Part shown: piece by piece, positions 13,444 through 37,934 of the stretch
Layout: the number at the start of each line of letters is the position of its first letter
Numbering within the stretch: the first letter of the stretch is position 1
NCBI GenBank assembly: GCA_035273585.1
Contig: DATEOX010000746.1
Location: forward strand, 1-57,796
Length of the DNA stretch: 57,796 nt
Source of the DNA: Thermoanaerobaculia bacterium
GTDB taxonomy: Bacteria > Acidobacteriota > Thermoanaerobaculia > Gp7-AA8
Direction: 5' to 3'
The notes under the pieces: model-generated
Databases searched by the model: none
What the model was told of the DNA's origin: nothing
The model's input: the letters and a program-made list of their open reading frames with translations, nothing else
Position numbers and translations under genes: made by a program

Positions 13444-13451
13444 TGCGCGGG

Positions 13452-17318: not shown

Positions 17319-17858
17319 ATGCGAGTCCGATCGGTCGTTTTCGTGCTGTTGTTGTGGCTTTGCGTGCCCGCGCTGCTCGCGCAGGCCGATTCTGCCGGCG
17401 GTAGCGAAGGAGCGACCGCGGGCGAGACCGTGGAGACCTCCGACAGCCGCGGCGACGTGGCGCCGAGCACGCCCGTCGCACCGGTTCCGGGCTGGGTGCA
17501 CGTCGTCCGGCTTGCGGCGTTGGCGGGCCCGATCGCGTTTCTCGCCGCGGCGTGGCTCGCCGGCGGCATCGTCCACTACCGGCTCGTCCGCCGCGAGCAC
17601 GATCTCTTTCCGGCTGTGCGCGGCACGCGAATTCCGCAGACGATGCCGATGCTGATCAGCGCGGCGCTCTTCTTCGTGCCGGTGGCGCTTTTCGTCTTTT
17701 TCGAAATCCGCTCGCGCTGGGAGATCGCGCGGCACATCGGCGGCGTCGTCGACCAGTGGCATCCGGTGACGGCCCGCGCGTGGATGACGCTCTTCGGCTG
17801 TCTGGTGCTGGCGATCACTCCGTGGCTGTTCGCGCGCCGCGCCGACTCAGTGCGTTGA
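17319..17858 (+). CDS. Cluster gene 1: exported/membrane protein (signal peptide plus about 3 TM helices)
   Basis: GAGGAG precedes the ATG. MRVRSVVFVLLLWLCVPALLAQA signal, acidic linker, three hydrophobic segments. Stop lies 11 nt before the next start. Confidence 0.6.
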   Translation: MRVRSVVFVLLLWLCVPALLAQADSAGGSEGATAGETVETSDSRGDVAPSTPVAPVPGWVHVVRLAALAGPIAFLAAAWLAGGIVHYRLVRREHDLFPAVRGTRIPQTMPMLISAALFFVPVALFVFFEIRSRWEIARHIGGVVDQWHPVTARAWMTLFGCLVLAITPWLFARRADSVR

Positions 17859-17869
17859 GGAGAGGAACG

Positions 17870-20800
17870 ATGGCGAACTACCTGATTGCGGTGGGCGGTA
17901 CCGGGCAGCACGTCGCGCTCGCGGTCGCGGATTTCATCGCGCTGGCGCACGAGATCTTCCGCACGCCGGACGAATTTCCCGCCGTGAATCTGATCCTCGT
18001 CGACGCCGACCAGGCAGGCGGCGCCGATCAGGCCTCGGCGTGGCAGGAGGCGCGGGCGCGGCTCACGACGCTCGGTCTTTTCGGCGGCGACAGTTTCGAA
18101 TGCGTGCCGCTTCCCGTGCACTCGACGTTCGCCGACACGCGGAAGATGTACGAGTTCGTGAACCGTCTCGGCGCATCGTTCGGCCCGAATGCCGCCGACG
18201 CGCTGCTCCTGCACGAACAGCGCGAGGTCGACGTCACCAGCGGTTTCTACGCGCAGCCGCGCGTCGGCGCGATGATGGCCGACTGGCTCTTCGGCGAGGT
18301 CACGCGCGGCGAGGCCGTCAACCCGCAGCTTGCGCGCATCTTCCATCTCGCCGGTGATCCCGGAAACCGCATCGTCGTCGCCGGCTCGGGCGTCGGTGGC
18401 ACCGGAGCGGGGTTCGCGCCGGCGCTCCTCCGCCGCCTGTCGTCCGCGAACGGCGCCGGCGCCAGGCTGATGGCGCTGATGGCGACGGAGTGGTTCCGGC
18501 TCGCCGGCGCCTGCTCGAACCGCCTGTCGGAGTCGGTGCAGAAGACGAACGCGAACTCCGCGCTGTGGCACGCCGCTCACTCCGGTGCGGCCGCCGGCGT
18601 GCGGACCGTCCTGTTCGGACACCCGGACGTCTCGCGCGCGCCGGAGGAAGCGTGTCAGAACGGTGCGCTGCAGGCGCGCAAGGACAACCTGACCATTCCG
18701 TATTACGCCGCGGCGGCAGCGACGACGTTCTTCGCCGGCGACAACAGCGGCGGCACGCACATTCCGGCTGCGGCGTTCTCCGGCGATGCGCTCGCGCTGC
18801 CCGGCACGTTGCGGGTCACGCCGCGTCTCACGCTGAACGATCTGGTGCGGGCGAACGTCGAGGCGGTCGGCCGGCTGACGCTCGTCTCCGAGTACCTGCG
18901 CGAGCCATACCGCGGCTTCGTCATGCCGTTCCCGACGCTCACCGGCCGCATCGACGCGCTCGATGCGACCGAGCAGCCGCGCATAGACGCGGCGCTCGCC
19001 GCTAAGCGCGCGGCGCTCGCGAACCTCGGCAAGTCCGACGAAAAGCTGCCGGTCGCGCCGCGCCATCACCGCGGCCTTCCGACGCTGCGCGGCTGGATCC
19101 GCGGCAAGGTCGACGGTCCGTACGACCTCTGGAAAGACGCGCCGGTGCCGCAGCAGACGCCGGAGAGTCGCGCCGAGACCGTCGCCGCGGACGCCGACAG
19201 TGCCACGCTCCTCATCCGCAGGATCGGGTTCACCGGCCGCGTCGTCGGCGGCAATCTCGTCCCGGTGACGCAAGCGCAAGTCCGCGATCTGGTCACCGTC
19301 GACGACGTCGACGTTTCCAAAGTTCCGGCGTCCGACGCGGCCTCGCTGACCCTCGGCCACATCTTCCGCAGTTGGGAAGCGCGCGATGTCGAAGAGAAGC
19401 GGCAGATCGCCGACTCGCTCGTCGACGACGGCCGCGCGCGCCGCCCGGTGCTCGTCTGCGGCGACCACGGCGATCGTCCGCGTCAGTGGCTGAACCGCTG
19501 GCTGCTGCTAACGAACTTCCTCGTGGAAGGCCGCTTGACGGTGGAGCAACGCCCGCTGCCGTTCACCGCCGGGAAGGTTTTGTCGTATCGCGGCACGCCG
19601 GTCGGCGAGCTGTCGCGCGAATGGATTTGCCTGCCGCTGGTGAACGGCTACTGGAACGACGAAGCGACCGTCGCGGCGATGCACAGCGTCGCGTCGCGCC
19701 TCGAGACGCTGGCCACGTGGTGCCGCAACACCGCCGCGGTCGCGCGTTGCAAATCGTCGCGCCTGCCGGCGTGGCTGGACGTGCTCTTGTTCGCGACCGC
19801 CGACTTCGCCGGTGCGGCCAAGCAGCACACCGCGCAAAGTGTTCCCGTGCAGTGGACGGACGGCAGCACCGTGTCGCTCCCTCTGCCGAACGGCGTGAGC
19901 GGCGGGAACGACTGCGTCGCCGCTACCGCCGAGGCGTTCGGCGTGCTCGTCGAGCAGCCGCCGCCCGATGCGATGTCGCCGAAAGTGCGTGAGATCGTCG
20001 ACGAGATCTCGCGCATCGCGTTGACCGTGCCGAGCCTCGACGGCGGTGAAGCGAAAAGCGTGGTGTTCTCCGAGCTGCTGTCGCCCGCCGCGCGCGACTG
20101 CCTCTTCGGCGAGGTCATCGTCGACGTCGACGCACAGAAAGCCTGGCGTCTCACGTCGTCGTCGCGCATCGTCACGTCGGTCGCCGGTGAGGTGCTGACG
20201 GAGAACGTCGGCTGCTTCCGCACCGAGCAGCGGGCGAAGTGGCTCACGCCGGTCCGACACTCCTACATTCCGCTGCTGAAGTCCGGCGAGCTCGACGTGC
20301 GCACCGACGAACGGGGACAGGAGCTGCGCGTCACGCTGTCGCTGCACGGACGAACGTTCATGGAGTCGTACGCGGCGTCGCGCGTGCGGACGATCAATCC
20401 GCTCCTCCTGCACTGGCCGTCCTCGGTCGCCAGCGCGTCGGCGGATGTGACGGTGTTGTACGACGTCGCCGGCCACGGAGCAGGTCCGCAGACGCTCGAG
20501 GTGGTGATGCACGACGCCGCCTCGCGGTCCTGGAGCCGCTCACCGCAGCTGAGCCAGCGGCATTCGCTGCACTACGTCGCGACCGGATCGCGCATCCCGT
20601 ACGGCCTGACGTTCGAGCTCGAGAAGCGCGACGTCGGCTTCCTCAAGCTCGAGCGCAATCTTCGTCCTCTCGACGACGGCACGCAGCGCGTCGCCGTCGA
20701 CTTCGGCACATCGGCGACCGTCGTGGCGATCGAGGGCGGGCCGACTAATTCGCAGGTCGTCGACCTTCTGGAACCGCGCGCCGATGCGACCGCCGAGATA

Positions 20801-22156
20801 TGGAAGGGGAGCGAGCTGGCCGCGTTTCAGTGGTACGGCACGAGATCTGTCGACCCCGAGATCGTCACGAAGCGGCGCGCGCCGAGTGCGCTCGTCTACC
20901 TCGGCTCGCCCAACGACGAGCGTCCGAAACAGCCGCGGTACGGCGATCACGTGCTTCTCGACCAGGACGACTGGCGGTGGGAGAACAGCGATGCGTCACT
21001 GATGTTCGACATCAAGTGGACTCGCGACGCGGCGTACCGGCAGACGTATCTGCTTCATCACCTGGAGCAGTGCATCGCCGCGGCACTGAGCAAGGGGACA
21101 CTGCACAGCCGCAGCCTTTCCGTGACGTTCACGATGCCTCTGCGGCAGCGTGCGCGTGCGGAGGACTTCGTGCGCGAGATCGAGGCGGTTACAGCGGAGC
21201 TCGTCCGGCGGACCGGCGTCGCGATCGAGCCGCGCTTCGCGTACGAGTCCGAGGTCATCGCGCCGCCGGAAGCTCCGCGGGAGGACGTCGACGCGATCGT
21301 CGTCGCCGATCTCGGCGGCGGCACGCTCGACGTTTTCGCGAAGTACTTCGGCGCGGCGCGGCGGGCGGATTCGAACGAGGTCGTTTTCGATAGTGCGCGC
21401 ATCGGCGGCCATTCGCTCGTGGAGTGGCTGACCCGGGACATGCGCGGGGCGGAGCTTGCCGACTACCGGCGCCTCCTCCGTCTCGGGCAGGTCCGGCCGC
21501 TGGACGACAACTCGTCGCGCGTCGCGCGCGATTACTTCGACGTCGTGAAGCGCTTCACGGCCCTTTGGATGGATTCGGTCTGGCGGTACTGGACCGGCGA
21601 GGCGCGGCCGGGCCGGGTGCACGTGCAACTGCTCGGAATGGGGTGGTCGTTGCCTGGGTCCCCCGGCGATCAGATCGCGCTGCACCTCAGCGACATCGCG
21701 CGTGCCGTCGATTCGCCGCTGACGTACACGCGGTTCGAGGACGCCCTCGTGCGCGTCAATCCTAAAGAGCTTTTGGCGATGCGCGCGCTGCGCTGCCGCG
21801 GCGCGTCGAGCAGTGACTTCGTCAACTTCGCTCCAGCGTCGGTGAACGGAATTGAAGTGACGGTCGCGGGGCAGATCCGCCGCGACGACGAGGCGCTCGT
21901 CGGCCTCGGCGCCAACTCGCCCGTGGTGACGATCAGCCGCGCCGGCCTCGCGCGTCTCGGCAAGTTGACCGGCGCACGCGAGGAGATCGTCGCCGAAGTC
22001 CGCGACCGCACGCGCGGCTGTCTCACCTCGCGCTCGAACGGTGTCGACGTACACGATGGCGCCGTCATCGAAGGGACGAACATCTGGGTTGCCAGTCCGC
22101 TCGCGATTGCAGCGGAGATGTACACGCGGCAAGTGCTGCTGCACGTGCACGGGTGA
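17870..22156 (+). CDS. Cluster gene 2: 1428-aa fusion of an N-terminal FtsZ/tubulin-like GTPase domain and a C-terminal Hsp70/actin-like (ASKHA) ATPase domain
   Basis: Start MANYLIAVGGTGQHV follows GAGGAGAGG. Four collinear FtsZ-like motifs: IAVGGTGQHVA (FtsZ IGVGGGGGNAV), LILVDADQ (AVNTDAQ), SGFYAQPRVGAMM (GAGANPEVGRNA), VVAGSGVGGTGAGFAP (AAGMGGGTGTGAAP). ASKHA motifs: VAVDFGTSATVVA (20690-20728), VVADLGGGTLDV (21299-21334), IGGHSLVEWL, VQLLGMGWSLPG. Confidence 0.75.
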   Translation: MANYLIAVGGTGQHVALAVADFIALAHEIFRTPDEFPAVNLILVDADQAGGADQASAWQEARARLTTLGLFGGDSFECVPLPVHSTFADTRKMYEFVNRLGASFGPNAADALLLHEQREVDVTSGFYAQPRVGAMMADWLFGEVTRGEAVNPQLARIFHLAGDPGNRIVVAGSGVGGTGAGFAPALLRRLSSANGAGARLMALMATEWFRLAGACSNRLSESVQKTNANSALWHAAHSGAAAGVRTVLFGHPDVSRAPEEACQNGALQARKDNLTIPYYAAAAATTFFAGDNSGGTHIPAAAFSGDALALPGTLRVTPRLTLNDLVRANVEAVGRLTLVSEYLREPYRGFVMPFPTLTGRIDALDATEQPRIDAALAAKRAALANLGKSDEKLPVAPRHHRGLPTLRGWIRGKVDGPYDLWKDAPVPQQTPESRAETVAADADSATLLIRRIGFTGRVVGGNLVPVTQAQVRDLVTVDDVDVSKVPASDAASLTLGHIFRSWEARDVEEKRQIADSLVDDGRARRPVLVCGDHGDRPRQWLNRWLLLTNFLVEGRLTVEQRPLPFTAGKVLSYRGTPVGELSREWICLPLVNGYWNDEATVAAMHSVASRLETLATWCRNTAAVARCKSSRLPAWLDVLLFATADFAGAAKQHTAQSVPVQWTDGSTVSLPLPNGVSGGNDCVAATAEAFGVLVEQPPPDAMSPKVREIVDEISRIALTVPSLDGGEAKSVVFSELLSPAARDCLFGEVIVDVDAQKAWRLTSSSRIVTSVAGEVLTENVGCFRTEQRAKWLTPVRHSYIPLLKSGELDVRTDERGQELRVTLSLHGRTFMESYAASRVRTINPLLLHWPSSVASASADVTVLYDVAGHGAGPQTLEVVMHDAASRSWSRSPQLSQRHSLHYVATGSRIPYGLTFELEKRDVGFLKLERNLRPLDDGTQRVAVDFGTSATVVAIEGGPTNSQVVDLLEPRADATAEIWKGSELAAFQWYGTRSVDPEIVTKRRAPSALVYLGSPNDERPKQPRYGDHVLLDQDDWRWENSDASLMFDIKWTRDAAYRQTYLLHHLEQCIAAALSKGTLHSRSLSVTFTMPLRQRARAEDFVREIEAVTAELVRRTGVAIEPRFAYESEVIAPPEAPREDVDAIVVADLGGGTLDVFAKYFGAARRADSNEVVFDSARIGGHSLVEWLTRDMRGAELADYRRLLRLGQVRPLDDNSSRVARDYFDVVKRFTALWMDSVWRYWTGEARPGRVHVQLLGMGWSLPGSPGDQIALHLSDIARAVDSPLTYTRFEDALVRVNPKELLAMRALRCRGASSSDFVNFAPASVNGIEVTVAGQIRRDDEALVGLGANSPVVTISRAGLARLGKLTGAREEIVAEVRDRTRGCLTSRSNGVDVHDGAVIEGTNIWVASPLAIAAEMYTRQVLLHVHG

Positions 22157-26616: not shown

Positions 26617-27087
26617 ATGACTCGTGAAACTGCCATCACCGGCGCGATTCTCGGCGAGCTTCTCCCCGAGCTGCAGTACGCCGCGCCTGTTCTCCTGGAG
26701 CGCTCCGATCGCGGCGATCCGCTCGTCGCGTCGACCTCGCCGGCCGACATCGGGTTCGAGACCGGTGCGGTCGATTCGGTGCTGCTCGAGCTCTTCAAGA
26801 CGCTCGTGCCGTACGTCAAGGCGGCGCTCGGGTGGGGCGTGCTGCGCGTCGTGCAGACGTGGCTGGCGTCGCAGCGCGAGTCGCGGCACCACGCGGAGCT
26901 GGTGGCGAGCCTCACCGCGCTCCTCGCGGAGAACGCGAAGCTGCGGCAAGCGTTCGAGAGCATCGCGGCCGTGCGGAGCCGCCGTGAGGGAGTGGCGGCG
27001 TCGACGGCGGACGTCGTCGATTCGATCGCCGACGCCGCCGAACGGATCGGCGACGCCGCCGATCCCGACGAACCGCAGCGCGACTGA
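26617..27087 (+). CDS. Cluster gene 9: hypothetical soluble helical protein
   Basis: 156-aa ORF, 9 nt after gene 8, GC-rich third positions. No recognised motif. Confidence 0.55.
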   Translation: MTRETAITGAILGELLPELQYAAPVLLERSDRGDPLVASTSPADIGFETGAVDSVLLELFKTLVPYVKAALGWGVLRVVQTWLASQRESRHHAELVASLTALLAENAKLRQAFESIAAVRSRREGVAASTADVVDSIADAAERIGDAADPDEPQRD

Positions 27088-27097
27088 AGACGCGGCA

Positions 27098-29851
27098 ATG
27101 AGCCCGATCGCCCTCGTCGCAGTCGTTCTGATCGGAGCCGTCGCGGCTTTCGACCGTCCGGCGCGAACGCCCGGAAATCTCACGCCCATTCAGCTGATCA
27201 GCGCCCTCGGCGCATGGGCGCTGATCCTCGCGAACGCCTCGGCCGTCGCGATCGCGATCCGGGACGGCTCCGGCGTTCTCCTTTGCACGGCGACCGGCAC
27301 GATCGCGATCGCGATCGTCTCGATGATTCGCCAGAGCACCGCCGCTCTTCCCGACCGGGACGCGCCGCAGTCGTTGACGCTCGTCGTCGATGATCTGAAG
27401 CGCCTGCTCGGCGGCGCACCGCGGCTCGGAATGGCGTCGCTCGACGCCGTGGTCGTTCATGGCCGCTGCCCCGGCGTCGGGGTGGCCGTGGCGCGGCAGG
27501 GACGGGTTGAAGTACGTGTCCGCCGCGACGTTGCGGAGTGGCTCGAGAGCCACCGCCGGCGCGGCGGCGCCGGGGCGGAGGTGGTGGCGAGCTTCGCGCG
27601 GTTCATCGTCCTGCACGAGGTCGCTCACGTCCTGAACGGCGATCACCGGACGTTTCGTTTCGTGCGCAGTGTGCTGATCGCGCAGCTGGTGTGGCTGCCC
27701 GGCGCCGCGGCGGCGGCCGCAGCCCGCGGGGTCGATTCGGGCGCATCCGGCACACCACTCGCGGTCGCCGCGTCAATCGCGTTTCTGCTCGTCGCGCAGA
27801 GCCTCGTGGCGCGGAAGTTCATCGCGGAGCGCGAGCGATGGGCGGACTGGCGAGCGATGCAGACGCTGCCGCCCGCCGATTCGGCGCGATTGCTGGAGCG
27901 GCGGGGGCGGCGGCGAAACGGCCGGAATCCGACCGAGCTCGAGAAGTTGATGAACGATCTCAAGGTCCACGCGTCGTCGGGCGGCGACGCCGGTCTGCTC
28001 GCGCGACTCATCGCGCTCGTGTGGCCGGACGGCGACGCCATTCATCAGCGGTCGGAGAGACTGGAAGGCGATCGCGCCGGCGGCGCACCGCGGCCGATGC
28101 TGTGGGCGGCGCTGACCGGCATGCAGTGCGGCTTCTTGTCGCTGTCTGCGTTGATGACCGTGATGCTCGCGATCCCTCCTTCGATGCATTTGCCGCCCGC
28201 CACCGTCGCGATGGCGCTCGTTACATGGATCACCGCGCCCGCCGTGACGTTCTGCGCCCTCCGCGTCGACCTCGCGCGCATGGCCGTACGCACGCTCGCG
28301 CTCACCGGCAGGCGTGTTCGCGTCGGCGGCGCCTTCTATCTGGCGTTCGCCGCCGCCGCGCTGACGTTGAACGGATTCCAGGCTCGCTTCGACGCCGCGC
28401 CGATGCCGGCCGTACTGCTGTTCGCGCTCCTGCTGATGGTCGCCATGCTGGTCGGTCTCTGTGTTTGGGCGTCGACCGTAGTCGGCATCCGCGACGGCGG
28501 CGGCGAGCTGCGGCCGACGCCGCGTGCGGCGTGGGTCGGCATGTTCCCGATTCTCGCCGGCATGGCGCTGGTGCAGGTTCCGTTGAGCGTGGCAGCCGCG
28601 CAATGGGTCGGCGCCGGTTCGTTTCGGAGCGGCAGGTGGGTTCCGGTGGTCCTTCTCTCGTTCGCGACCTTCGCGGTCAGCAGCGCGATGGCGAGGAGCA
28701 CGAGCCGGGTACTGCGCACGGCCGCTCCGATGGCGCTGCTCGACACGCCGCCGCCCGTCTACGGTTTCCGTGTTTTCTGGTGCAACTTCTATATCGATCT
28801 GTCAAAAACGACGCTGGCGCGCGCCGCGGCGGGCGCGATGGCGGTGCAACTCGCGACGGTGCCATTCTTCGTGCTCACAGCAGCCTTGATGATGCAGGCG
28901 GCGCTGCGCGGATTCGGCGCGGAACGCGCGATCACGGTCGCGTTCGTCGGCGCGTTCGGAGTGATGGCGCTCATCCTCGTCATTCCCGATCGCTACAGCG
29001 CGTACGGCGGCCCATCAGCGCGCCTGCTCGACACCGATCGGCTGCGGCTGTTCGAAGACCTTCTCGCCGCCGCGCGGGCCGCAAATCCGGCGGCGGCGGA
29101 CCGCCTGAACGCGTCATTCGCGCGGTGGATTCGCGACGACCGTTTTCCCGATGCGCTTCTCCCGCATCCGGAGGCCGTCTGGCCGCTCGCGCCGCTTCTC
29201 AGCCTCGTGCGTCTCGCGAGCGCGACCGGCGAGAGCGCCGCCGTCGGGCGCTGGCGCGGCCGGATCGAGCACGCTCTCCGGCAGATCGTCGTCGACGACG
29301 CAGTGGCGGTCGCACCGCGCCAGCCTCCGTCGCTTTACTGGACCGTGCTCGCCGCCACGATCATCGAGCAGGCAAACCTCCGCGCTGCGTTCCCGTTCGA
29401 GGCGATGCTCGACCGGATCGAGACGTTGGTCGAAGAGCGTTTGGAACGCGGCACCGCGAACCTCGTCGCCGATCTGGTCGCGGCGTCGCAGCTGCTGCGC
29501 CGCCACCGCCGCGCCAGCCCCGATCCGCAGCGCGTGCACGAGCTCGTGCGCACGTCATCGCTCGTGTCGCGTCCTCTGTTGCGCCAATCGCTGGCGGAGC
29601 TCGCCGAGCTCGCAGAGCTGACCGGCGATGCTGCGTTGCGCGAGCGGCTCGGGCCGATCGTCCGCTCGCGGATGTGGGAAGGCCTGCAACTGAATCCGCG
29701 GAAGGACGTGCTGCTGGTGCTCGACTGCTATCTCGCCGCCGCATCGCTCGGCCAACAGGACGGACGTCACGACGCCGCCGGCCTCGTCGTCGGCGAGCTC
29801 GCCGAGCGGATGTCGGAGGAGCTGAGTGCAGTCGTCGATCGCGTTCAGTAG
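27098..29851 (+). CDS. Cluster gene 10: polytopic membrane HExxH metalloprotease (M48/M56-like) with large C-terminal helical domain
   Basis: ATG at 27098, within the 1075-aa track ORF whose first part is an alternate frame of gene 9. LHEVAHVLNGDH (HExxH at 27614-27628). More than 10 hydrophobic segments. C-terminal 300 aa are Leu/Ala-rich and helical. Confidence 0.65.
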   Translation: MSPIALVAVVLIGAVAAFDRPARTPGNLTPIQLISALGAWALILANASAVAIAIRDGSGVLLCTATGTIAIAIVSMIRQSTAALPDRDAPQSLTLVVDDLKRLLGGAPRLGMASLDAVVVHGRCPGVGVAVARQGRVEVRVRRDVAEWLESHRRRGGAGAEVVASFARFIVLHEVAHVLNGDHRTFRFVRSVLIAQLVWLPGAAAAAAARGVDSGASGTPLAVAASIAFLLVAQSLVARKFIAERERWADWRAMQTLPPADSARLLERRGRRRNGRNPTELEKLMNDLKVHASSGGDAGLLARLIALVWPDGDAIHQRSERLEGDRAGGAPRPMLWAALTGMQCGFLSLSALMTVMLAIPPSMHLPPATVAMALVTWITAPAVTFCALRVDLARMAVRTLALTGRRVRVGGAFYLAFAAAALTLNGFQARFDAAPMPAVLLFALLLMVAMLVGLCVWASTVVGIRDGGGELRPTPRAAWVGMFPILAGMALVQVPLSVAAAQWVGAGSFRSGRWVPVVLLSFATFAVSSAMARSTSRVLRTAAPMALLDTPPPVYGFRVFWCNFYIDLSKTTLARAAAGAMAVQLATVPFFVLTAALMMQAALRGFGAERAITVAFVGAFGVMALILVIPDRYSAYGGPSARLLDTDRLRLFEDLLAAARAANPAAADRLNASFARWIRDDRFPDALLPHPEAVWPLAPLLSLVRLASATGESAAVGRWRGRIEHALRQIVVDDAVAVAPRQPPSLYWTVLAATIIEQANLRAAFPFEAMLDRIETLVEERLERGTANLVADLVAASQLLRRHRRASPDPQRVHELVRTSSLVSRPLLRQSLAELAELAELTGDAALRERLGPIVRSRMWEGLQLNPRKDVLLVLDCYLAAASLGQQDGRHDAAGLVVGELAERMSEELSAVVDRVQ

Positions 29852-30510
29852 GTGTTGACGCCGCACGAGAACATCAGCTGGAGCGCGACGCGCGGAGAAC
29901 CGTGGATGCTCTCCTTCACGATCGCGCGGTCGAAGAAGCGCTGATCGACGTCCGGCAATACGGCCCTGACGGCGTCGGCGATGCAGCGGCATTGCGGCTC
30001 CCCATGCTGTCCCGAATACGCCTCGACACAACCTGCAACGAAGCGCGAACTGCCGGAAGTTCGCTTCAGGTAGATGACGATGCCGCGCGCGAGGAGCGCC
30101 GCTTCCGGTCCGTTGCACGGAATGTCGTCCATCAGCGACGTTCCTGCCGCGAATACCGACGCGCGATCGGGCGGCGACGGCAGGCTTTCCTGAAGGCGTG
30201 CTTGCCGCTTCTGCAGGCCGATAGACAAAGCCGCCGCGCCGGTGAACCGCTCCACCAGCGCGCGGCCTTCCACGTCCCGCGGCAGCTTGCAGGACGTTCG
30301 CAGCCGCTGTGCAATACCCGCCAGGAAAAACTGCTCGTTCTGCGTGAACGCGTAGCGGCAACTTTCCTCGACGGCAAAGCGGGCGTCGCCGAACGGGAGG
30401 GATCGATAGCGTTCCGGTGTGGGGCCGCAGGCAGTCTGTGCGTTGGCTGCAACGCTAACGAAAGCCGCCGCTGCGACGATCGCGGCGCGAACATGCTGCG
30501 CCTTCGTCAA
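29845..30510 (-). CDS. Secreted Cys-rich protein
   Basis: Proposed TTG start overlaps the upstream stop (TTGA), giving MTKAQHVRAAIVAAAAFVSVAANA signal and 10 Cys. The 3' end overlaps the gene 10 stop by 7 nt (convergent). Start choice is uncertain. Confidence 0.5.
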   Translation of the reverse strand: MTKAQHVRAAIVAAAAFVSVAANAQTACGPTPERYRSLPFGDARFAVEESCRYAFTQNEQFFLAGIAQRLRTSCKLPRDVEGRALVERFTGAAALSIGLQKRQARLQESLPSPPDRASVFAAGTSLMDDIPCNGPEAALLARGIVIYLKRTSGSSRFVAGCVEAYSGQHGEPQCRCIADAVRAVLPDVDQRFFDRAIVKESIHGSPRVALQLMFSCGVNTY

Positions 30511-31907
30511 CGAAGCTCCGCACTCTGCAGCGCCGCGGCGTTTCGGACGAGCACGTCGTCGACATGCCTGACCGCTTTGTCGAGATCCCAGAAGCAGCGT
30601 TCCGCCCGCGGGTTTTCGCGAAAGAGAGCGCAATTCCCCGCCGACAGGGACGGCGGGCAGGTTGTTGCGCACCAGAAGTTCGCAACGGTCAGGAATCGTA
30701 CGGTCTCAGTCTCCTCGGCCTTCGCCAACGGCAGTCGTTCGTCGAGATCGCGCAGCACGGCGACGCATCCGTCACGCCACCGCACGTACGACGTCACGAA
30801 TTCGTCCGCTGTCCGCGAGCCGTACAGTTTCCGCAGTGTCTCGCCGTCAGCCCTGCATTGCGCGAGAAACGGCCGCAGCCGCGCTCCTTTCGAGAGCGGG
30901 CGCGGCTGCGCGGCGACGACGGCGGGCGGATCCGCCGGCGGGCGACGGGAACAGATCGCCAGCGGCATCGCCCTCGCGGCGCCGTCGACGTTCGCCTGCG
31001 TCGCGTTGCGTGTGAAGGGATCGCGGTTCGTCCGGATCCAACGGAGCACCGTTCGTTCGATGTCCACCGAGAGCTCGTTCACCGTCACGATTCCGGTCGG
31101 ATCGCTTCCGGCGCGGCATTGCAGCGCATCGAGCACTGCGCCGGTGAACACGCCGTTCTGCCGGACGTCATCGTCATATGCCCACTTTCCGGCGGCGGCG
31201 CCGTAAAGCACGACCTGGCCCGCCGTCAGTCCCATTTGCTGGATCAGGGGCGCGGCCGACAGCGCCTCGGGCGCCGTCGAGCGTTGCCGCCGCACGCGCT
31301 CACGGCAGGTGTCGATCAGGACGAGCGAGCGTGTGGCGATCGATGCAGCGACGAGGTCGAGAACTCTGGCGGCCGGAATTGCGGTGTTGGGCTCGCGAAA
31401 GAGCGAGTTCGCGGCCAGCAGGTACTGCGCGCCGTCGTCAGTGAAACCGTGCGTTGCGAACGAGACGATGAAGATGCCGGAGGCGCCGGCCAGGCCGGCC
31501 TGCCGGTTGAGGAGCTTCAGGATCTGGGACTGGCTCGCGGGCGCGACGACCGCGCCGTTTCGCTTCAGTTCCGCGAGCCGCCCTTTCGAGACTTCCTTGC
31601 GTGGGTTTTCGTCGGATAAGGCGAGCGCGACGCGATTCGGCCGCACCAGCGCCACGCGAGGATCGAGCGCGAAGACATACGCGAGATCGACGGCGTCGTC
31701 GACGGCATATGGCACGTTCTGGAGGGATTCGTCGTCGCCGAAAGTGCCGATTCCGACGAAGAGCGCGACGGATTGCGCGGGATCGAACGCGCTGCGCGCG
31801 AGCGTCATCGCGCCGCTGAGTGGCCGGACCGAACGCCCCTCCTGAGCGCTCGCAGGGAGCGCGAGCAGGACCGCCATGCCGCCGAGGAGCGGGATCAGCC
31901 TGTTCAT
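30507..31907 (-). CDS. Secreted caspase-like (peptidase C14 fold) protease with Cys-rich C-terminal domain
   Basis: Start MNRLIPLLGGMAVLLALPASA (signal). VALFVGIGTF..., His in FIVSFATHGF (31449-31451), Cys in LVLIDTCRE (31305-31307). This is the caspase His/Cys dyad arrangement. Confidence 0.7.
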   Translation of the reverse strand: MNRLIPLLGGMAVLLALPASAQEGRSVRPLSGAMTLARSAFDPAQSVALFVGIGTFGDDESLQNVPYAVDDAVDLAYVFALDPRVALVRPNRVALALSDENPRKEVSKGRLAELKRNGAVVAPASQSQILKLLNRQAGLAGASGIFIVSFATHGFTDDGAQYLLAANSLFREPNTAIPAARVLDLVAASIATRSLVLIDTCRERVRRQRSTAPEALSAAPLIQQMGLTAGQVVLYGAAAGKWAYDDDVRQNGVFTGAVLDALQCRAGSDPTGIVTVNELSVDIERTVLRWIRTNRDPFTRNATQANVDGAARAMPLAICSRRPPADPPAVVAAQPRPLSKGARLRPFLAQCRADGETLRKLYGSRTADEFVTSYVRWRDGCVAVLRDLDERLPLAKAEETETVRFLTVANFWCATTCPPSLSAGNCALFRENPRAERCFWDLDKAVRHVDDVLVRNAAALQSAELR

Positions 31908-32031
31908 CGCGTCGCTTTGAAAAGACACGGAAACGCCGTGAACGTGGGGGAACTTCGCCCGCGCGGCCCACAAACCAAAACGGCTGGTGTCTTTGAAAGG
32001 TACCGCCACTCGACACATCTCAGGAGGTCCG
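31908..32031. promoter_or_regulatory. Divergent intergenic control region between the caspase-like gene and operon 2
   Basis: 124 bp non-coding. CTTTGAAAAGACAC (31915-31928) and GTGTCTTTGAAAGG (31987-32000) share CTTTGAAA(A/G)G and an inverted GTGTCTTT arm. AGGAGG at 32022-32027. Confidence 0.35.
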
Positions 32032-32508
32032 ATGCCGCGTCCGATTCTCGGGGTTGAAACCCGCAGTCCTTCGCTCACCGTGAGCGCGGGGCCGCCGCAC
32101 GCGAAAACGAACCTCTCTCCGCCACAGATCGCGCAGCGTCTCCGCCAGAAGCGCTCTGCCGCCTATCTCGCGTCGATGCAACGTCTCGACGCCGGCTCGC
32201 ATGAACGAAATGCTGCCGGCCTGCAGGAGTTGCTCGACGCGATCTCCGCGGAGTTTCCGGAGCTCGGAGTCGACGAACGCCCGCTGGGCATCGTCTCGAA
32301 GTGTTTCCTTGGCGATCCATTCGAAGTGCACATCTGTGACCTCGCGGGCGGCATCATCGAGCATTTCCGGCGCGGGCACTCCATGCCTCCGCTGTTCGAG
32401 CGCGCCCGGTCGCTGGCGAAGCACGGCGCCTACGCATTCATCGAGATCTATGTCGGAACCATGCGCGCCGTCGCGGCGGACGGTTCCGTGTCGGTTCTGA
32501 ATCCCTGA
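32032..32508 (+). CDS. Operon 2 gene 1: hypothetical protein with N-terminal RPILGxE motif
   Basis: ATG 4 nt after AGGAGG. MPRPILGVETRSP.... No recognised domain. Confidence 0.5.
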   Translation: MPRPILGVETRSPSLTVSAGPPHAKTNLSPPQIAQRLRQKRSAAYLASMQRLDAGSHERNAAGLQELLDAISAEFPELGVDERPLGIVSKCFLGDPFEVHICDLAGGIIEHFRRGHSMPPLFERARSLAKHGAYAFIEIYVGTMRAVAADGSVSVLNP

Positions 32509-32525
32509 CCAGAGGAGAACGGTGT

Positions 32526-34247
32526 ATGTCGAATATCGTTGATCTGAGCAGCATCCACGCGCACCTCAACCGCATCGGGCACGACCTCGACGTCGTCAAC
32601 ACCAACGTCGGCGCGGTGTCGGAGCAGGTCGTCGCCGTGTACCGGCAGCAGGAGCTGACGAAAGATCGGCTCGACGACCTTCATCAGCAATTTCAGGAGT
32701 TCGTCGCCGCGGACCGGAAGGACAAGCAGAAACAATACGCCGCGACCGAGCTCGTACGCGTGCGGCAGGAGATCGAGCAGAAGTTCGGACACCACGAAAT
32801 CGTCCGCCGCACGACCACCGGCATCCTGCAGGCCACCGACATTCAGATGATCCGTCAGAACACGATTCATACCGTGACGGAGCAACTCATGGTCACCACG
32901 CCGAATTATTGGCTTGCGCCGGCGCTGGTGGCGTTGTCCGCCTGGGTCAAAGACGACCGCGCGCTCGCCGAACGAGGCGTTGCCGAAGCGATTCGCCGGG
33001 ACGACAACAAGACTTCGCTCTTCTTCGCGCTCGTCTGTCGCCGCGGCCGGCGCAGTGAAGCGCTGACGCGGTGGCTGAGCCGCTATTTTCAGATGCAGAA
33101 CCCGATGGCGATCGACCGCGAGGTGGTGGTCATGCTCGACGGCCTCGCGAACGGCGTGTTTGGCGGCGCTGCTCTGGTCGCCTGTTCGGGCGTCATCGAG
33201 CAATGGCTGGCCGAGCTCGAGGAACAGGCCGGCTTCCTCGACGATCAGCGGAAGCGCTGGGCAGCGCAGCTCGACGTGATGACGCCGAAGCCGGCTGACC
33301 GCGAGTACCCGACGCTCCGCAAATACGCCGGCAACGCGCCGCAGCTGCTCAAGGCGCTATGTGCGGCGCGCCGTAATCGCGTCGTACACGATTTTTTCAG
33401 CACGCTGTTCACCGGCGAGCTGATCGTGCCGCCGTCGATCGAGGCAGCATGTGATGCTCTGCTCGACTCGCTGGTCGCGAATTACGACGACGAAGAATTG
33501 CCGTTTCGCCGGGAGGAGCGCCTGCTCGCGCTGATCAAGGAAGATGACGGCGACAGGGACGTGGCGAAAGCGCGTTTCGACGCCGAGGCCGAAATCCATG
33601 AGGCGAGCACGAATTTCGCGGCGGTGCTCACCAATTCAGCCATGCATCCCGAACAGCTCGGCGCGACGCGCGCGACGCAGCGATACGCGGTGTCGCGGTC
33701 GCGCGAGTGGATCATGGCCGCGCACAATGACCTCGTCGCACGCGACCGGATGGACGTGCCGCGGCAAGCGCAGCTGACGGTCGCATCGTGGTCGGGAACG
33801 AGCGCCGACGGTGCGAACGAGAAAGTGCTGGCGGGCGATCTCCGGCGGCATTACGACGCGAAAATCGAATCGGCTGTCAATGCGGTGTCGCTGACTCCCG
33901 CCGCCTGGATCGTGCTGATCGCGGGCGTATTGATCGGCGGTCTGATCATGACCGGCGGCGGTACCGCGATTGCGGTCGGCCTCGTGCTCATCGCCGCAGC
34001 GGCGGCATTCTTCTACTGGAAGTACAACAATCTCGATCGGCAGCGCGGGGAGGCGCGGCAGGCACTGCAGACGGAGCACGATCAGGCCGCCTCCGTGCTG
34101 AAAGCCGCTCTTGCGGAGCTTGCCGATTATCGCCGCGAAGTTGCCGTCGAAGACGCGCGCTCGGCCGATGTGACGACGCTGCTCGAATCGCTCAGCTCTC
34201 CGCAGTTCGTCCTGCAGCGCCCCGAACAGCGCGTATCCGTTGCGTAA
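32526..34247 (+). CDS. Operon 2 gene 2: 573-aa helical protein with C-terminal double TM anchor
   Basis: Coiled-coil N-terminus; NYWLAPALVALSAW...KTSLFFALV region; AAWIVLIAGVLIGGLIMTGGGTAIAVGLVLIAAAAAFFYW hairpin. Family not recognised. Confidence 0.6.
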   Translation: MSNIVDLSSIHAHLNRIGHDLDVVNTNVGAVSEQVVAVYRQQELTKDRLDDLHQQFQEFVAADRKDKQKQYAATELVRVRQEIEQKFGHHEIVRRTTTGILQATDIQMIRQNTIHTVTEQLMVTTPNYWLAPALVALSAWVKDDRALAERGVAEAIRRDDNKTSLFFALVCRRGRRSEALTRWLSRYFQMQNPMAIDREVVVMLDGLANGVFGGAALVACSGVIEQWLAELEEQAGFLDDQRKRWAAQLDVMTPKPADREYPTLRKYAGNAPQLLKALCAARRNRVVHDFFSTLFTGELIVPPSIEAACDALLDSLVANYDDEELPFRREERLLALIKEDDGDRDVAKARFDAEAEIHEASTNFAAVLTNSAMHPEQLGATRATQRYAVSRSREWIMAAHNDLVARDRMDVPRQAQLTVASWSGTSADGANEKVLAGDLRRHYDAKIESAVNAVSLTPAAWIVLIAGVLIGGLIMTGGGTAIAVGLVLIAAAAAFFYWKYNNLDRQRGEARQALQTEHDQAASVLKAALAELADYRREVAVEDARSADVTTLLESLSSPQFVLQRPEQRVSVA

Positions 34248-34259
34248 AGGAGAAATGCC

Positions 34260-34427
34260 ATGACGACACCCGCACGACCGATTCTCGGAGCCGAGGTGGT
34301 TACACCGAAGCCGCCGGCGCCGCAGACGAATGTCCCCGCCGAGTTGCCCATTGCGAAAGAGCTTCCGCCGTGGGATCTCGTTCCGTCCGACCTGCTGCTC
34401 GTCCGGCGCCGGCCGGTGAAGAAATGA
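34260..34427 (+). CDS. Operon 2 gene 3: 55-aa Pro-rich peptide with RPILGxE motif
   Basis: GGAG lies 7 nt upstream. MTTPARPILGAEVVTPKPPAPQTNVPAELPIAKELPPWDLVPSDLLLVRRRPVKK. Stop overlaps the next ATG (ATGA). Not in the track (under 60 aa). Confidence 0.45.
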   Translation: MTTPARPILGAEVVTPKPPAPQTNVPAELPIAKELPPWDLVPSDLLLVRRRPVKK

Positions 34428-34954
34428 CGGCCACGGCGGCGCCGACGACGTACGCGGAGTGGCTGCCGCTCCTGGAGCGCTTCCGCGACGGCGATGACTC
34501 GGTGATCGAGCTCCTGCTCGCCGGCACGCTCGAGTGGACGAACATCGTGGCGGAACGCTGGACCGCCCGTGTCGCCGATGCGTTCGACACGAGGCTGAAG
34601 AAGGTGTCGTCGGGATTGCAGCTCGCGCTTGACCGCTCGCGAGGCGATCTCTTTTCAGTGTCGCAGGCGCTCCTCGGTGCACGCCGCGCGCTCGCGCCGC
34701 TCCATACCGCGGCCGCGCTCTCCTGCGCGCCGGAAAACGTGCGCGCACACTTCGCCGGCGAAGTGGCGCGCTTTGCGGCCCGAACGCAGGAGTCGCTCGA
34801 AGCGAGCGCGAAGCGCAATCGCGCCGATCTCCTCCTCAAGGCGCTCCGCGACAATCCGTTGACCGTCGTCATCCCTCCGCCGGTCTCTGCTGAACCTCAC
34901 TCCGCGACCGGTTCCGCCCCGCAAGACGGCCGGCGCCGCCGCGTTCTCATCTGA
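34424..34954 (+). CDS. Operon 2 gene 4: hypothetical all-helical protein
   Basis: MTATAAPTTYAEWLPLLERFRDGDD..., 176 aa. This is the in-frame tail of track ORF 33788-34954, whose upstream part is an alternate frame of gene 2. Confidence 0.55.
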   Translation: MTATAAPTTYAEWLPLLERFRDGDDSVIELLLAGTLEWTNIVAERWTARVADAFDTRLKKVSSGLQLALDRSRGDLFSVSQALLGARRALAPLHTAAALSCAPENVRAHFAGEVARFAARTQESLEASAKRNRADLLLKALRDNPLTVVIPPPVSAEPHSATGSAPQDGRRRRVLI

Positions 34955-34960
34955 GCGACC

Positions 34961-36508
34961 ATGCCTGACTTTCAAACGTGCCGGCAGACGATGCTTCTGT
35001 ACCTCAAGGCGAGGATTCCGTTCATCTCGTTCCGTACTGATGAACGCGACCGTGCGCTTGATCTCCTGCGGCAGCTCGCGCCGCAGTTGAACATTCCGAT
35101 TTACTTTCACACGCTGTCGCAGGGAACCCGCGACATAGCGACCAGTCGCGTCGTCAATGACGACCGTTCCGTGCCGGGCGCGCTCGATTTCGCCAGCCAG
35201 CAGATCGTGCAACGGCAGAATCTGACGTTCGTTCTGACGGAGACGCAGGATCTCGGCGACGACACGCCGACAAGTCGACAGCTCCTCGATGTTGCCGCCT
35301 CGGCGACGGAACGCGGCGGGATGATCATCGTCATTACGACATCGCCGATCTGGCCGCGGCTGCAGAGGCAGGGGATGAGCCTCACTCTGGACCCGCCGCA
35401 TGAGGACGAAATGCGCGAGATCATCGCGGAGTGCCTCGCACCGTATCGCGGCGGCGTACCGATCGAATGGCAAGACGCGGAGCTGTCCGAGGCCGCCGCG
35501 ATTCTGGCGGGCGTGACGCGGGTCGAAGCGGATAACGCGATCGCTACGCTGTTGGCGAAAGGTTCGATCGCGAAAGCCGACCTCAATGAGCTGGCGAAGG
35601 TGAAGGACCGCATTTTCTCCGACATCTCCGGCTTGGAGCGGGTAACGGTGGCGCCGGGTGACGTGTCGATCGGTGGTCTCTCCGGCCTGCGCGCATGGCT
35701 CGACAAGCAGCGGCCGCTGTTGACGATGGATCTGCGCGACCGCGGGCTCCGTCCGCCGCGCGGCGTGTTGCTCGTCGGTGTTCCCGGTTGCGGAAAGTCG
35801 CTGTCGGCGAAGGCGATCGCGGAGAATTGGAGCCTTCCTCTCTATCGCCTCGATCTCGCGAATATTCACGGCCAATACCTCGGCCAGTCAGAGGGACGTT
35901 TGAAGGAAGCGCTGGCGACGGCTGATCGCGTAGCGCCGTGTGTTCTGTGGATCGACGAGATCGAAAAAGGCCTGGCAGGGTCGGGCGGGAGCGACGGCGG
36001 AACGTCGTCGCGCATCGTCGGACATTTTCTTTATTGGCTGCAGGAAGGCCGCGCCCGCGTGTTCGTGGTGAGCACGGCGAACGACATTACGAAGCTCCCG
36101 CCGGAGCTGTTCCGCCGCGGACGATTCGATGAGCTGTTTTTCGTCGATCTGCCGACCGTGGCGGAGCGCACGGAGATCATCGCGCTGTACCTCCGAAAGC
36201 ACCTGAGGCGGACGTTCGACGACACCCTCGTCGCCGACCTCGTGAACCTCTCCGAAGGCTTCGCCGGAAGCGATCTCCAGGCCGCGGTCGCCGAGGCCGC
36301 ACGCGAGGCGGTATTGAAGGGCGACGACACGGTGGATGACGAGTATTTGCGGAAGGTGTTCCGCAACGTCGTACCACTGTCGAAAACGAATCCGGAAGCA
36401 ATCGAAAGCATCCGCGCGTGGGGACGCGAGCGCGCGGTGCCGGCGTCCGGCGTGCACGCGGCCCCAAGCGAAGGCCAGCAGCGCGCGCGGAGGTCGGTGC
36501 TGGTGTGA
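34961..36508 (+). CDS. Operon 2 gene 5: AAA+ ATPase, classic clade, Ycf46-like (degenerate N-domain plus one active AAA module)
   Basis: Walker A GVPGCGKS (35777-35800), Walker B VLWIDEIE (35942-35965), VSTANDITKLPPELFRRGRFDELFFVDLP (second region of homology). Overall length and layout match the Ycf46-type ATPases as I recall them. Confidence 0.85.
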   Translation: MPDFQTCRQTMLLYLKARIPFISFRTDERDRALDLLRQLAPQLNIPIYFHTLSQGTRDIATSRVVNDDRSVPGALDFASQQIVQRQNLTFVLTETQDLGDDTPTSRQLLDVAASATERGGMIIVITTSPIWPRLQRQGMSLTLDPPHEDEMREIIAECLAPYRGGVPIEWQDAELSEAAAILAGVTRVEADNAIATLLAKGSIAKADLNELAKVKDRIFSDISGLERVTVAPGDVSIGGLSGLRAWLDKQRPLLTMDLRDRGLRPPRGVLLVGVPGCGKSLSAKAIAENWSLPLYRLDLANIHGQYLGQSEGRLKEALATADRVAPCVLWIDEIEKGLAGSGGSDGGTSSRIVGHFLYWLQEGRARVFVVSTANDITKLPPELFRRGRFDELFFVDLPTVAERTEIIALYLRKHLRRTFDDTLVADLVNLSEGFAGSDLQAAVAEAAREAVLKGDDTVDDEYLRKVFRNVVPLSKTNPEAIESIRAWGRERAVPASGVHAAPSEGQQRARRSVLV

Positions 36509-36540
36509 GGCGATGTCGCTTGGCGGAGGACTGAGCGGCA

Positions 36541-36930
36541 TTACGGATTCTCCTCAAAGACGCGGCCCGCGAGGGGCAGCGCTGAATTCGCCGTCGGCCA
36601 CCCGGAGTAGAAGGCGAGGTGCGTGATCGTTTCGATCAGCTCGTCCTTCGTCACCGCCGTTGTCGAGCGCTCGCTTCAGATGGAACGGAAGCTCGTTCGT
36701 CCTGTATCCGGCGACGAGCGCCGCGACCGTGACGAGACTCAGATCGCGCGGAAGGCTGTGGCACGCGGAGCGCGCGCCGGGCTCGAACGTCACAGACCCT
36801 CCGGCGGATCGCGTCGCCTCCGTCGCGTCGCAGAGGGGAGTGATGCGAACGGCCGGTGAAGGTTGCGGCCGACCCCTGCTGACGGCGCGCCAGCCGCTTC
36901 GCATGATGACGTTGTTTGCGCATCTACCGT
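36541..36930 (-). pseudogene. Mosaic remnant: cupin N-terminal fragment joined to a carboxymuconolactone-decarboxylase-family C-terminal fragment, with frameshifts
   Basis: FTGR... / VRITPLCDATEATRSAGGSVTFEPGARSA (cupin-like), then LVTVAALVAGYRTNELPFHLKRALDNG | VTKDELIETITHLAFYSGWPTANSAL (CMD-like; needs a 1-nt correction near 36655). Confidence 0.5.
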
Positions 36931-37172
36931 GGTGGCGGAAATCGCGGCGATCAAGCAGGCAATGCAGCGCGAGCTCGAACGCCATCGCAACGTTGCCGGC
37001 TCGAAGCTAGAGGAGTTGCAGAGCTCATGAAGAAGCAGGCCGCACAACGATGGCACGTGCCGCTGTTCGAGCCTCGCCGCTACTCGTCCTCGCCATGATT
37101 CTCGTCAGCCGCGAGATACGACCAAACGAGGTCCGGGATTGGAGGGGGTAGCGTATGGAAGCGGAGGACGCG

Positions 37173-37934
37173 CTAGCGCCGTTCGATCGGTGCTTCGACG
37201 ATCTTGGTGATCGTGCCGACGAGGAACCACTCACTGCGATGGCCGAGCCGAACGGGGTCGTAATCGGGGTTGTGCTTGTCGAGCACGACCTGCCCTTTCG
37301 ACTCCTCGCGCCAGTAGCCGATCATGCCGCCTTCCGCGCGTACGTAAACCGCAACGACGTCACGGTCGCGCGGGCTCTGCAGGCGCGTGTCGACGAGGAC
37401 CTTGTAGCCACTCTGGAAGAAGTCCGCCATCGAATCGCCGATCACCCGGATCACCTGCAGCGCACCGTTGCGCACGTCGCGAATCGAATGGAGCACCTCA
37501 GTCGTGAGGAGCGGCCGGTCGGCTTCGATACCTGATGAGCCGGCGGCTGCCGGCATGTCCGGGACGACCCAGGCGTGCAGTGCTTGTGGGAAATCGAATT
37601 CGCGCTCGATGAATCGCTCGGGGCGGATAGGGAAGCGGTATTCAGGCACGGACCGCGGCTCGTCGAGCGTGTCGAGGCTGAGACGCTGGCGAAGGAATTC
37701 GACCCAGTCGCGGATCCTGCGGCGGTCGCTGATCGTGATGTCCAGCGTGACTTCGCCGAGAAGATCGCTCACCGTGGTGTCGAGGCTTTCGGCAATTCGC
37801 TTGACGGTGAAGACGCTCGGCTCGGCCGCGGGGCCTCGCTGCTTCTGCTCCGCGCGCTTGCGATACGGCTCGTAGTCCGGATCGTTTTCGAGGATCCGCG
37901 AGATTTGCGTTGTCTTTCTTGAACGCGGCGGCAT
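37173..37934 (-). CDS. Phage-type repressor: HTH plus S24 (LexA/CI-like) peptidase domain
   Basis: 253 aa. FTVKRIAESLDTTVSDLLGE helix-turn-helix-like segment. VIRVIGDSMADFFQSGYKVLVD is the S24 Ser motif. Confidence 0.75.
   Translation of the reverse strand: MPPRSRKTTQISRILENDPDYEPYRKRAEQKQRGPAAEPSVFTVKRIAESLDTTVSDLLGEVTLDITISDRRRIRDWVEFLRQRLSLDTLDEPRSVPEYRFPIRPERFIEREFDFPQALHAWVVPDMPAAAGSSGIEADRPLLTTEVLHSIRDVRNGALQVIRVIGDSMADFFQSGYKVLVDTRLQSPRDRDVVAVYVRAEGGMIGYWREESKGQVVLDKHNPDYDPVRLGHRSEWFLVGTITKIVEAPIERR

Follow-up and report, generated by a model that had tools for sequence, protein, structure and literature searches.

Among described systems, IetAS/IteA (Gao et al. 2020) is a mobile cassette of several genes, one of them for a classic AAA ATPase, and Kaur et al. 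2020 (PMC7159879) reported EACC1-caspase, tubulin-GTPase and FtsH-vWA-MoxR systems, none of which matches the five genes considered here. These genes lie at positions 32032-36508 of a 57,796-nt stretch of DNA from a Thermoanaerobaculia bacterium (Acidobacteriota; contig DATEOX010000746.1 of assembly GCA_035273585.1), which is referred to below as the window. They encode an AAA+ ATPase, a membrane-anchored helical protein and three small proteins, and no description of this set was found in the literature, in defence catalogues or in family databases. The five genes are co-inherited as a discrete unit across at least five phyla, with unrelated host DNA on either side. We tentatively read the cassette as an autonomous, horizontally mobile, AAA+-driven membrane module of about 4.5 kb, perhaps of a conflict or anti-phage type, with the role itself being speculative.

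Organization of the five-gene cassette

The genes, designated g1 to g5 in 5' to 3' order, are all on the plus strand. The first, g1 (32032..32508), encodes 158 amino acids (aa) and is followed by g2 (32526..34247; 573 aa), whose product is the signature protein of the cassette, g3 (34260..34427; 55 aa), g4 (34424..34954; 176 aa) and g5 (34961..36508), the gene for the 515-aa AAA+ ATPase. Consecutive genes are separated by 17, 12 and 6 nt, except that the stop codon of g3 overlaps the start codon of g4 in an ATGA sequence. An initial annotation, made from the sequence alone, had proposed an intact operon of five same-strand genes separated by 6-17-nt gaps or an ATGA overlap, the partners of the ATPase belonging to no recognised family. 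The coordinates, gaps and overlap are all confirmed, and searches of Pfam, NCBIfam, PADLOC and PHROG give no family for the products of g1 to g4. The same annotation had allowed that the partner open reading frames (ORFs) might prove not to be conserved; all five are kept across phyla. Because each is conserved at the protein level and in register over this range, g1 to g5 are real genes rather than chance ORFs.

A Shine-Dalgarno sequence, AGGAGG, can be read on the plus strand at 32022..32027, 4 nt 5' of the g1 ATG, within a divergent intergenic region of about 125 nt that separates g1 from a minus-strand caspase-like gene. A promoter scan did not find a sigma-70-type consensus promoter at the cassette, terminator-like sites near it are no commoner than expected from shuffled sequences, and Rfam gave no match over positions 31000-37500.

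Distribution and mobility

The same five genes were found together in about 35 loci, and they are consecutive wherever the locus is long enough to show all of them. At least five phyla carry the cassette (Acidobacteriota, Beta- and Alphaproteobacteria, Firmicutes and Fusobacteria). Acidobacterial hosts include Thermoanaerobaculia, Blastocatellia, Granulicella, Bryobacterales and Luteitalea sp. TBR-22; the betaproteobacterial ones are Variovorax, Achromobacter and Comamonas antarctica (on a 643-kb plasmid), and the alphaproteobacterial copies are on two Komagataeibacter nataicola plasmids of 26 and 38 kb. Symbiobacterium, Peptococcaceae and Streptococcus oralis represent the Firmicutes, and Fusobacterium vincentii the Fusobacteria. 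The gene order is that of the window except in Streptococcus and Fusobacterium, where it is a circular permutation (g2-g3-g4-g5-g1) with all five genes kept. Clustering of the ORFs in these loci gave no sixth family common to distant loci.

Betaproteobacterial cassettes share 74-84% DNA identity over about 4.5 kb, while their flanks have 0 bp in common, whether different genera are compared or the two species A. xylosoxidans and A. denitrificans. As the similarity is confined to the cassette and the flanks are unrelated, the five genes constitute one discrete, mobile unit. The cassette also shows presence/absence polymorphism against a conserved flanking block (locus L034). The Komagataeibacter plasmid copies lie between an IS3 element and an integrase, beside a RelE/ParE pair, and in S. 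oralis the cassette has an integrase remnant, at the rpsD 3' integration site, on one side and an integrative element on the other.

One streptococcal copy is found in the GenBank record of the satellite phage Javan368 (MK448457.1, locus L030), and carriage of the cassette as satellite cargo was considered and rejected: S. oralis Uo5 (L037), which has no such satellite, keeps the same stretch. Positions 8844-14257 of the Javan368 record are 97.5% identical to positions 9172-14584 of Uo5, the aligned stretch beginning with the last 15 nt of rpsD, likely the att core. Since the last 5.4 kb of the record matches the satellite-free chromosome, the cassette is outside the satellite proper, and the record appears to overrun its right end into chromosomal DNA. 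The integrase remnant, 65% identical, is present between rpsD and the cassette in both the Javan368-bearing and the Uo5 strains. A scan of IMG/VR with the streptococcal g2 protein gave no match, and one with the acidobacterial profile gave a single "viral" contig, on which the neighbours of the cassette are cellular or conflict genes rather than phage structural genes.

The AAA+ ATPase

The g5 protein matches the Pfam AAA family (PF00004) at 6.5e-28, together with AAA_lid_3. A domain without a Walker A motif (aa 1-235) precedes the module that carries Walker A (GVPGCGKS, aa 273-280), the pore loop (YLG, aa 306-308), Walker B (LWIDEIE, aa 329-335), sensor-1 (TAN, aa 372-374) and the arginine fingers (RRGRFDE, aa 385-391). 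The GVPGCGKS, WIDEIE, TAN, RRGRFDE and YLG motifs are invariant in 14-16 orthologues from five phyla. With its Walker A and B motifs, sensor-1 asparagine, arginine fingers of the second region of homology (SRH) and pore loop, g5 has the features that define the classic clade, and the assignment of a single active classic-clade module in the initial annotation is borne out, all catalytic and pore-loop motifs being intact. Based on these motifs, we infer that g5 works as a hexameric AAA+ unfoldase of this clade, threading its substrates.

The same annotation had called the N-terminal domain degenerate. Its Walker A motif is indeed absent; for an AAA-like fold, the support comes from a weak hhalign alignment of this domain with the AAA module of the same protein (E 0.002, probability 13%) that is in register, pairing IIVITT with VFVVSTAN and LDPPHEDEMREII with VDLPTVAERTEII. 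This alignment is consistent with a degenerate AAA-like domain. A profile of the N-terminal domain found no relative in the Protein Data Bank (PDB).

The closest characterized modules are those of p97/Cdc48/VAT (8e-55 overall, with about 95 and 93 bits for p97 D1 and D2), and the NCBIfam scores are far under the cut-off of every family (CDC48, PAN, FtsH, CdvC, IteA). UniRef automatically names the g5 orthologues "Uncharacterized AAA domain-containing protein ycf46", which is not a curated assignment, and neither Pfam nor NCBIfam holds a curated Ycf46 model. The PHROG family phrog_8638, of unknown function, matches g5 over its full length at 1.5e-99. The phage relatives, which include Corndog-like and PaMx31-like AAA-ATPases, are about 32% identical to g5 and are not accompanied by the four partners.

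The membrane-anchored protein

The AlphaFold model of g2, made from an alignment of 32 homologues, is all-helical, with a mean pLDDT (predicted local distance difference test) of 83.7. It consists of an N-terminal helix of 80 residues (aa 8-87), a helical bundle (aa 90-410), a beta-hairpin (aa 415-426), a transmembrane (TM) helical hairpin (aa 459-498, nt 33900-34019 on the plus strand), and then a long C-terminal helix and tail. Both Kyte-Doolittle analysis and AlphaFold indicate the TM hairpin, in which a glycine-rich turn joins two hydrophobic helices. The coiled-coil N-terminus and C-terminal TM hairpin that had been noted for the largest partner are thus both represented, the former as the 80-residue helix and the latter at aa ~459-498. 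The outer loop of the hairpin has only 5-8 residues, so that g2 has no obvious external sensor. Because g2 has no signal peptide, and lysine and arginine residues follow its second hydrophobic helix, its large domain and C-terminus are predicted to be cytoplasmic.

From Acidobacteria to Streptococcus, 73 residues of g2 are invariant, concentrated at aa 94-245 (GILQAxD, YWLxPxLVALxxW, KxSLFFxLxxRR), and the TM hairpin is conserved too. More than 466 homologues remain after clustering at 90%, with a length of about 570-590 aa, and every one is annotated "hypothetical". A profile search of 1.84 billion representatives at 50% identity gave 470 clusters (E<=1e-30) or 894 (E<=1e-3), nearly all of 555-625 aa and without fusions; the oral streptococcal clusters at 90% identity have about 600-700 members. 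No Pfam, NCBIfam, PADLOC or PHROG model describes g2, and no PDB entry matches its sequence profile; the single PADLOC match, to LeoBC (0.0065), is weak and covers the TM and coiled-coil region. The g2 model has no significant Foldseek match in PDB or BFVD. Its top matches, all non-significant, are pore or pre-pore chains of SmhB, AhlB and MakA, the best match to this ClyA family having E 0.029, probability 0.91 and TM-scores of 0.17/0.27.

The small partners and the terminal peptides

The N-terminus of the g1 protein is disordered and bears a conserved M-x-R-[PS]-I-L-G; the alpha+beta domain that comes next (AlphaFold pLDDT 73) has a YAFIEIY strand and invariant Cys91, His100 and His111 (KCxLGxPxEVH...IIxH). 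The protein matches no Pfam, NCBIfam, PADLOC or PHROG family, no PDB entry by sequence profile and none significantly by Foldseek. The g3 protein is proline-rich and probably disordered, with an N-terminal RPILG and a conserved core, LPxWDLxP...LLVRRRP (nt 34362-34424, plus strand); Pfam, NCBIfam, PADLOC and PHROG gave no family. In the g4 protein a helical domain (TYAEW...) is joined by a variable linker to a C-terminal peptide that ends in RRRRVLI (nt 34931-34951, plus strand). No Pfam, NCBIfam, PADLOC, PHROG or PDB sequence-profile match was found for it, and hhalign revealed no kinship with either g2 or the N-terminal domain of g5.

In some Acidobacteria g3 is extended at its C-terminus by a double zinc ribbon (DZR; L012:2210-2557, L014:5628-5924, L025:11780-12130 and L026:11755-12258). 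Standalone DZR, TPR and TPM proteins are clustered downstream of the cassette in L025 and L036.

Similar short peptides recur at the ends of the cassette proteins. Across relatives, g4 ends in R-x-R-R-[VIN]-I-L, preceded by a variable, probably disordered linker, and g5 ends in [RK]-x-R-[RK]-x-[VL]-L-[VG], likewise after a variable linker; in the window the g5 tail is ARRSVLV (nt 36485-36505, plus strand), located beyond the lid and this linker. The C-terminus of g2 is RR[IV]L-like in Proteobacteria, Streptococcus and Fusobacterium, so that most g2 proteins bear such a tail. The motif LPxWDLxP...[LF]x[VI]RR is present in g3 across relatives, and the N-termini of g1 and g3 are alike, M-x(0-4)-R-x-[ILM]-[ILM]. 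In the bacterial adaptor SspB, a C-terminal LRVVK tail docks on ClpX. By analogy with such adaptor tails, the basic-hydrophobic peptides (RRxVL-type) may be docking or engagement handles, or unfolding-initiation tags, for the motor.

Relation to the neighbouring operon

The initial annotation had also proposed a functional link between the cassette and an adjacent operon at 17.3-29.9 kb, thought to encode a tubulin/actin-like fusion, and had named independent occurrence of the two as grounds for refuting it. The cassette is alone in all loci outside Thermoanaerobaculia: the upstream window genes are missing from Luteitalea, Variovorax, Achromobacter, Comamonas, the Komagataeibacter plasmids (down to 26 kb), Symbiobacterium, Peptococcaceae, Streptococcus and Fusobacterium. 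These genes (the 26.6-29.9 kb ORF, a 275-aa gene and the caspase-like gene) join the cassette only in the close Thermoanaerobaculia relatives L004-L009, in one of which (L008) they are rearranged. Three more distant members of the 917-aa protein family encoded by the 26.6-29.9 kb ORF were examined. In L035 the cassette is immediately upstream of the 917-aa-family gene; L033 has two 917-aa paralogues and no cassette; and L034 has homologues of the 917-aa, 275-aa and caspase proteins along with giant Tubulin_2/VWA proteins, the cassette being absent within 10 kb. The 917-aa family comprises 56 clusters, all Thermoanaerobaculia-like, versus at least 466 for g2. Since each gene set occurs without the other, the link is refuted by the annotation's own criterion. 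What remains is a lineage-specific tendency to share one island.

A role for the cassette as the arm of a tubulin/actin-like operon that carries out remodelling or disassembly therefore seems to us extremely improbable, even though the two are adjacent in the window and the 917-aa family repeatedly adjoins the cassette, in varied arrangements, within one Thermoanaerobaculia lineage (L004-L009 and L035). In addition to the separate occurrences, Pfam finds no tubulin, actin or other domain (E<=0.01) in the 1534-aa ORF at 17552-22156 (plus strand), and the Tubulin_2/VWA proteins of L034 do not match that ORF by tblastn.

Several further features of this region were recorded. The long ORF at 26617-29851 (plus strand) is probably two genes, one of 156 aa at 26617-27087 and one for the 917-aa protein ending at 29851. 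The 917-aa family, which is often duplicated, gives a weak M48/HtpX-like metallopeptidase signal, and in relatives its genes sit among CHAT, nSTAND3, caspase and Tubulin_2/VWA genes. The caspase-like protein (30507-32078, minus strand) matches the NCBIfam family "caspase, EACC1-associated type" at 1.2e-17; its true start is likely near 31907, which gives an N-terminus (MNRLIPLLGG...) that resembles a signal peptide and leaves the divergent region of about 125 nt before g1. The sole tRNA gene of the window, tRNA-Asn at 7508-7583 (plus strand), is followed at 8-16 kb by DNA of lower G+C content (62-63%, versus 64-70% elsewhere). This stretch may be an integrated element, unrelated to the cassette.

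Genomic neighbourhoods

In Luteitalea (L002) the neighbours of the cassette include BREX PglZ/BrxC, GmrSD and PIN-MazE, those in L026 are a PLD-SNF2 protein and an MmeI-like (type IIG-like) methyltransferase, and in the window an EACC1-type caspase, a PIN protein and an S24 protein are nearby. Four acidobacterial loci have a HerA-like set of three genes directly beside the cassette, upstream in three (L025:5124-9404, L026:5352-9455 and L036:5590-9388) and downstream in one (L028:14289-18657). Its products are a HerA/DUF87-like ATPase (about 960-1014 aa; PADLOC HerA, 1e-12 to 1e-19), a small TM protein, and a third protein, about 240-295 aa long, in which HEYRHAEQ is an HExxH-like motif. The set is unrelated to the upstream genes of the window. 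It could be a further conflict system that no catalogue lists, or it could work together with the cassette.

Two other gene sets were observed within 10 kb of a cassette, each in a metagenomic locus: a Gabija-like pair (an OLD-TOPRIM ATPase and a UvrD helicase) at L035:18308-21216, and a Prok-E2_E gene with a ThiF/JAB set at L036:17426-19522.

Possible functions

In the conflict or anti-phage reading that we tentatively favour, g5 would be the motor, and its client or partner would be g2, anchored by its hairpin with the helical domain in the cytoplasm, as the anatomy of the two proteins suggests. The g1, g3 and g4 proteins would then be adaptors or regulators. Using ATP to remodel either an inhibitor or g2 itself, the motor would shift g2 back and forth between an inert form and an oligomer that perturbs the membrane. 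What the tails do, and in which direction regulation runs, is purely inferred. In favour of this reading are the co-inheritance of the five genes in one fixed or permuted order, their patchy distribution of the horizontal-transfer type with varying insertion sites, the plasmid and island locations, the presence/absence polymorphism, conflict genes near the cassette in several independent loci, the invariant catalytic and pore-loop residues of g5, the conserved terminal peptides, and the invariant residues and TM hairpin of g2. Several observations weigh against this reading. Most of the 121 flanking ORFs in 14 other loci are housekeeping genes (ABC, MFS, IDH, SDR, TPR) with few defence matches, and the neighbours in L027 and L029 are metabolic or miscellaneous; taken with the conflict genes described above, the neighbourhood evidence for defence is mixed. 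The partners match no known defence family (PADLOC-DB v2.0, in which g1, g3 and g4 have no match at all), and the apparent carriage by the satellite phage Javan368 did not hold up. The g4 tail is absent in Streptococcus and Fusobacterium, and the handle hypothesis is weakened by these low-GC versions of the cassette. Finally, g5 is 64-92% identical within and between Acidobacteria and Betaproteobacteria and still 51% identical to the streptococcal protein; such unusually strong conservation would also fit a housekeeping-like machine.

The principal competing explanation is that the cassette is an accessory module for membrane homeostasis or stress, in which g2 would be a hairpin-anchored scaffold. 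The AAA+ protein, with the small proteins as adaptors, would assemble, extract or recycle this scaffold, much as happens with FtsH-HflKC and Msp1, or with ESCRT-III/PspA under the action of Vps4. Purifying selection, which is very strong on g5 and the core of g2, the ordinary metabolic or transport genes beside most proteobacterial and several acidobacterial copies, and the short outer loop of the g2 hairpin all speak for it. Against it are patchy presence over five phyla, insertion sites that differ within one genus, carriage on small plasmids, presence/absence polymorphism and the repeated adjacency of conflict genes, and there is no similarity to SPFH, PspA, Snf7 or FtsH partners; we regard this explanation as unlikely, while giving it serious weight. 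A different use of the same anatomy, to which we assign a considerably smaller chance, is a toxin-like membrane effector for plasmid or island maintenance or for competition, with g2 as an alpha-helical pore-former of the ClyA/Smh/Ahl/MakA kind restrained by the AAA+ protein and the small proteins. Pointing that way are the SmhB, AhlB and MakA chains as the best, though non-significant, Foldseek matches (probability up to 0.91), the beta-hairpin followed by a hydrophobic helical hairpin beside a long helical bundle, and the presence of the cassette on small plasmids with a toxin-antitoxin pair. Yet the Foldseek E values are >=0.03 and the TM-scores <=0.27, most copies are chromosomal, and there is neither a signal peptide nor any secretion gene, all five proteins being predicted to be cytoplasmic or inner-membrane. 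Less probable again is a bacterial ESCRT-III/Vps4-like remodelling system with g4 or g2 as the polymer and g5 as the Vps4 analogue. The layout of g4 (helical core, linker, C-terminal motif) recalls ESCRT-III with its C-terminal MIM, and g5 belongs to the AAA clade of Vps4/CdvC; but a check for ESCRT-III/PspA-like partners, which the initial annotation had suggested, found no support in the sequences of g2 and g4 or in the fold of g2. Specifically, g2 and 21 g4 homologues gave 0 matches to the Snf7 and PspA_IM30 Pfam families at E up to 0.1, and no ESCRT-III, PspA or Vipp1 is among the top 50 Foldseek matches of g2. Moreover, the CdvC score of g5 is 72.6 bits (cut-off 650), and g5 has no MIT domain and bears the same tail as g4.

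Beyond the choice of function, it is possible, if rather doubtful, that the cassette represents a new, widespread class of AAA+ machine, in which four partners of unknown fold and an RRxVL-type peptide code control a hairpin-anchored membrane effector, either in immunity or abortive infection or in membrane remodelling. If this were true, the class would have no counterpart among catalogued defence systems. The large g2 family spans soil Acidobacteria, opportunistic Achromobacter, oral streptococci and Fusobacterium, and four of the five cassette proteins are without a family model or recognisable fold. As a defence system, the cassette would add a new AAA+-gated membrane mechanism; as a homeostasis machine, it would provide a partner set and a client for part of the Ycf46-like AAA family. 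In either case, the conserved terminal peptides are testable handles on recognition between the motor and its partners. Being self-contained, 4.5 kb long and present in culturable strains, the cassette can feasibly be cloned and tested directly.

Comparison with known systems

An AAA+ motor with membrane partners on mobile DNA is a known kind of system; these particular partners and their arrangement are not known. The resemblance to IetAS/IteA goes beyond the mobile multi-gene cassette, as the PADLOC IetA models match the g5 core at 2e-24. However, g5 reaches only 72.6 bits against the NCBIfam IteA_antiphage model, for which the cut-off is 510, the partners are unrelated, and no IetS protease is present among the five proteins; membership of the cassette in this group was accordingly rejected. 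The cassette resembles SspB-ClpX in the plan of g4, whose folded domain is followed by a variable linker and, at the very C-terminus, by a short basic-hydrophobic peptide, but there is no sequence or family kinship, the g5 motor is not ClpX, and g5 itself bears a similar tail. With the ClyA family (SmhB, AhlB, MakA), g2 has in common a long helical bundle and a hydrophobic hairpin with an adjacent beta-hairpin, although it is about 250 aa longer, lacks an export signal, and its Foldseek matches are non-significant.

With Cdc48/p97/VAT, PAN, FtsH and Vps4/CdvC, g5 shares Walker A and B, the Y-L-G pore loop, sensor-1 and the SRH arginines. It differs from this group in having a single active module after an N-terminal domain without Walker A, and no protease, MIT or Cdc48-N domain. 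The similarity to FtsH (92 bits, versus a cut-off of 600) covers the AAA core only, and g5 has no TM segment and no M41 domain. In the literature, no report was found of Ycf46, an AAA protein of cyanobacteria and plastids, together with these four partners. In overall architecture g5 and Ycf46 are of the same length class and have the same layout of an N-terminal domain followed by one AAA module.

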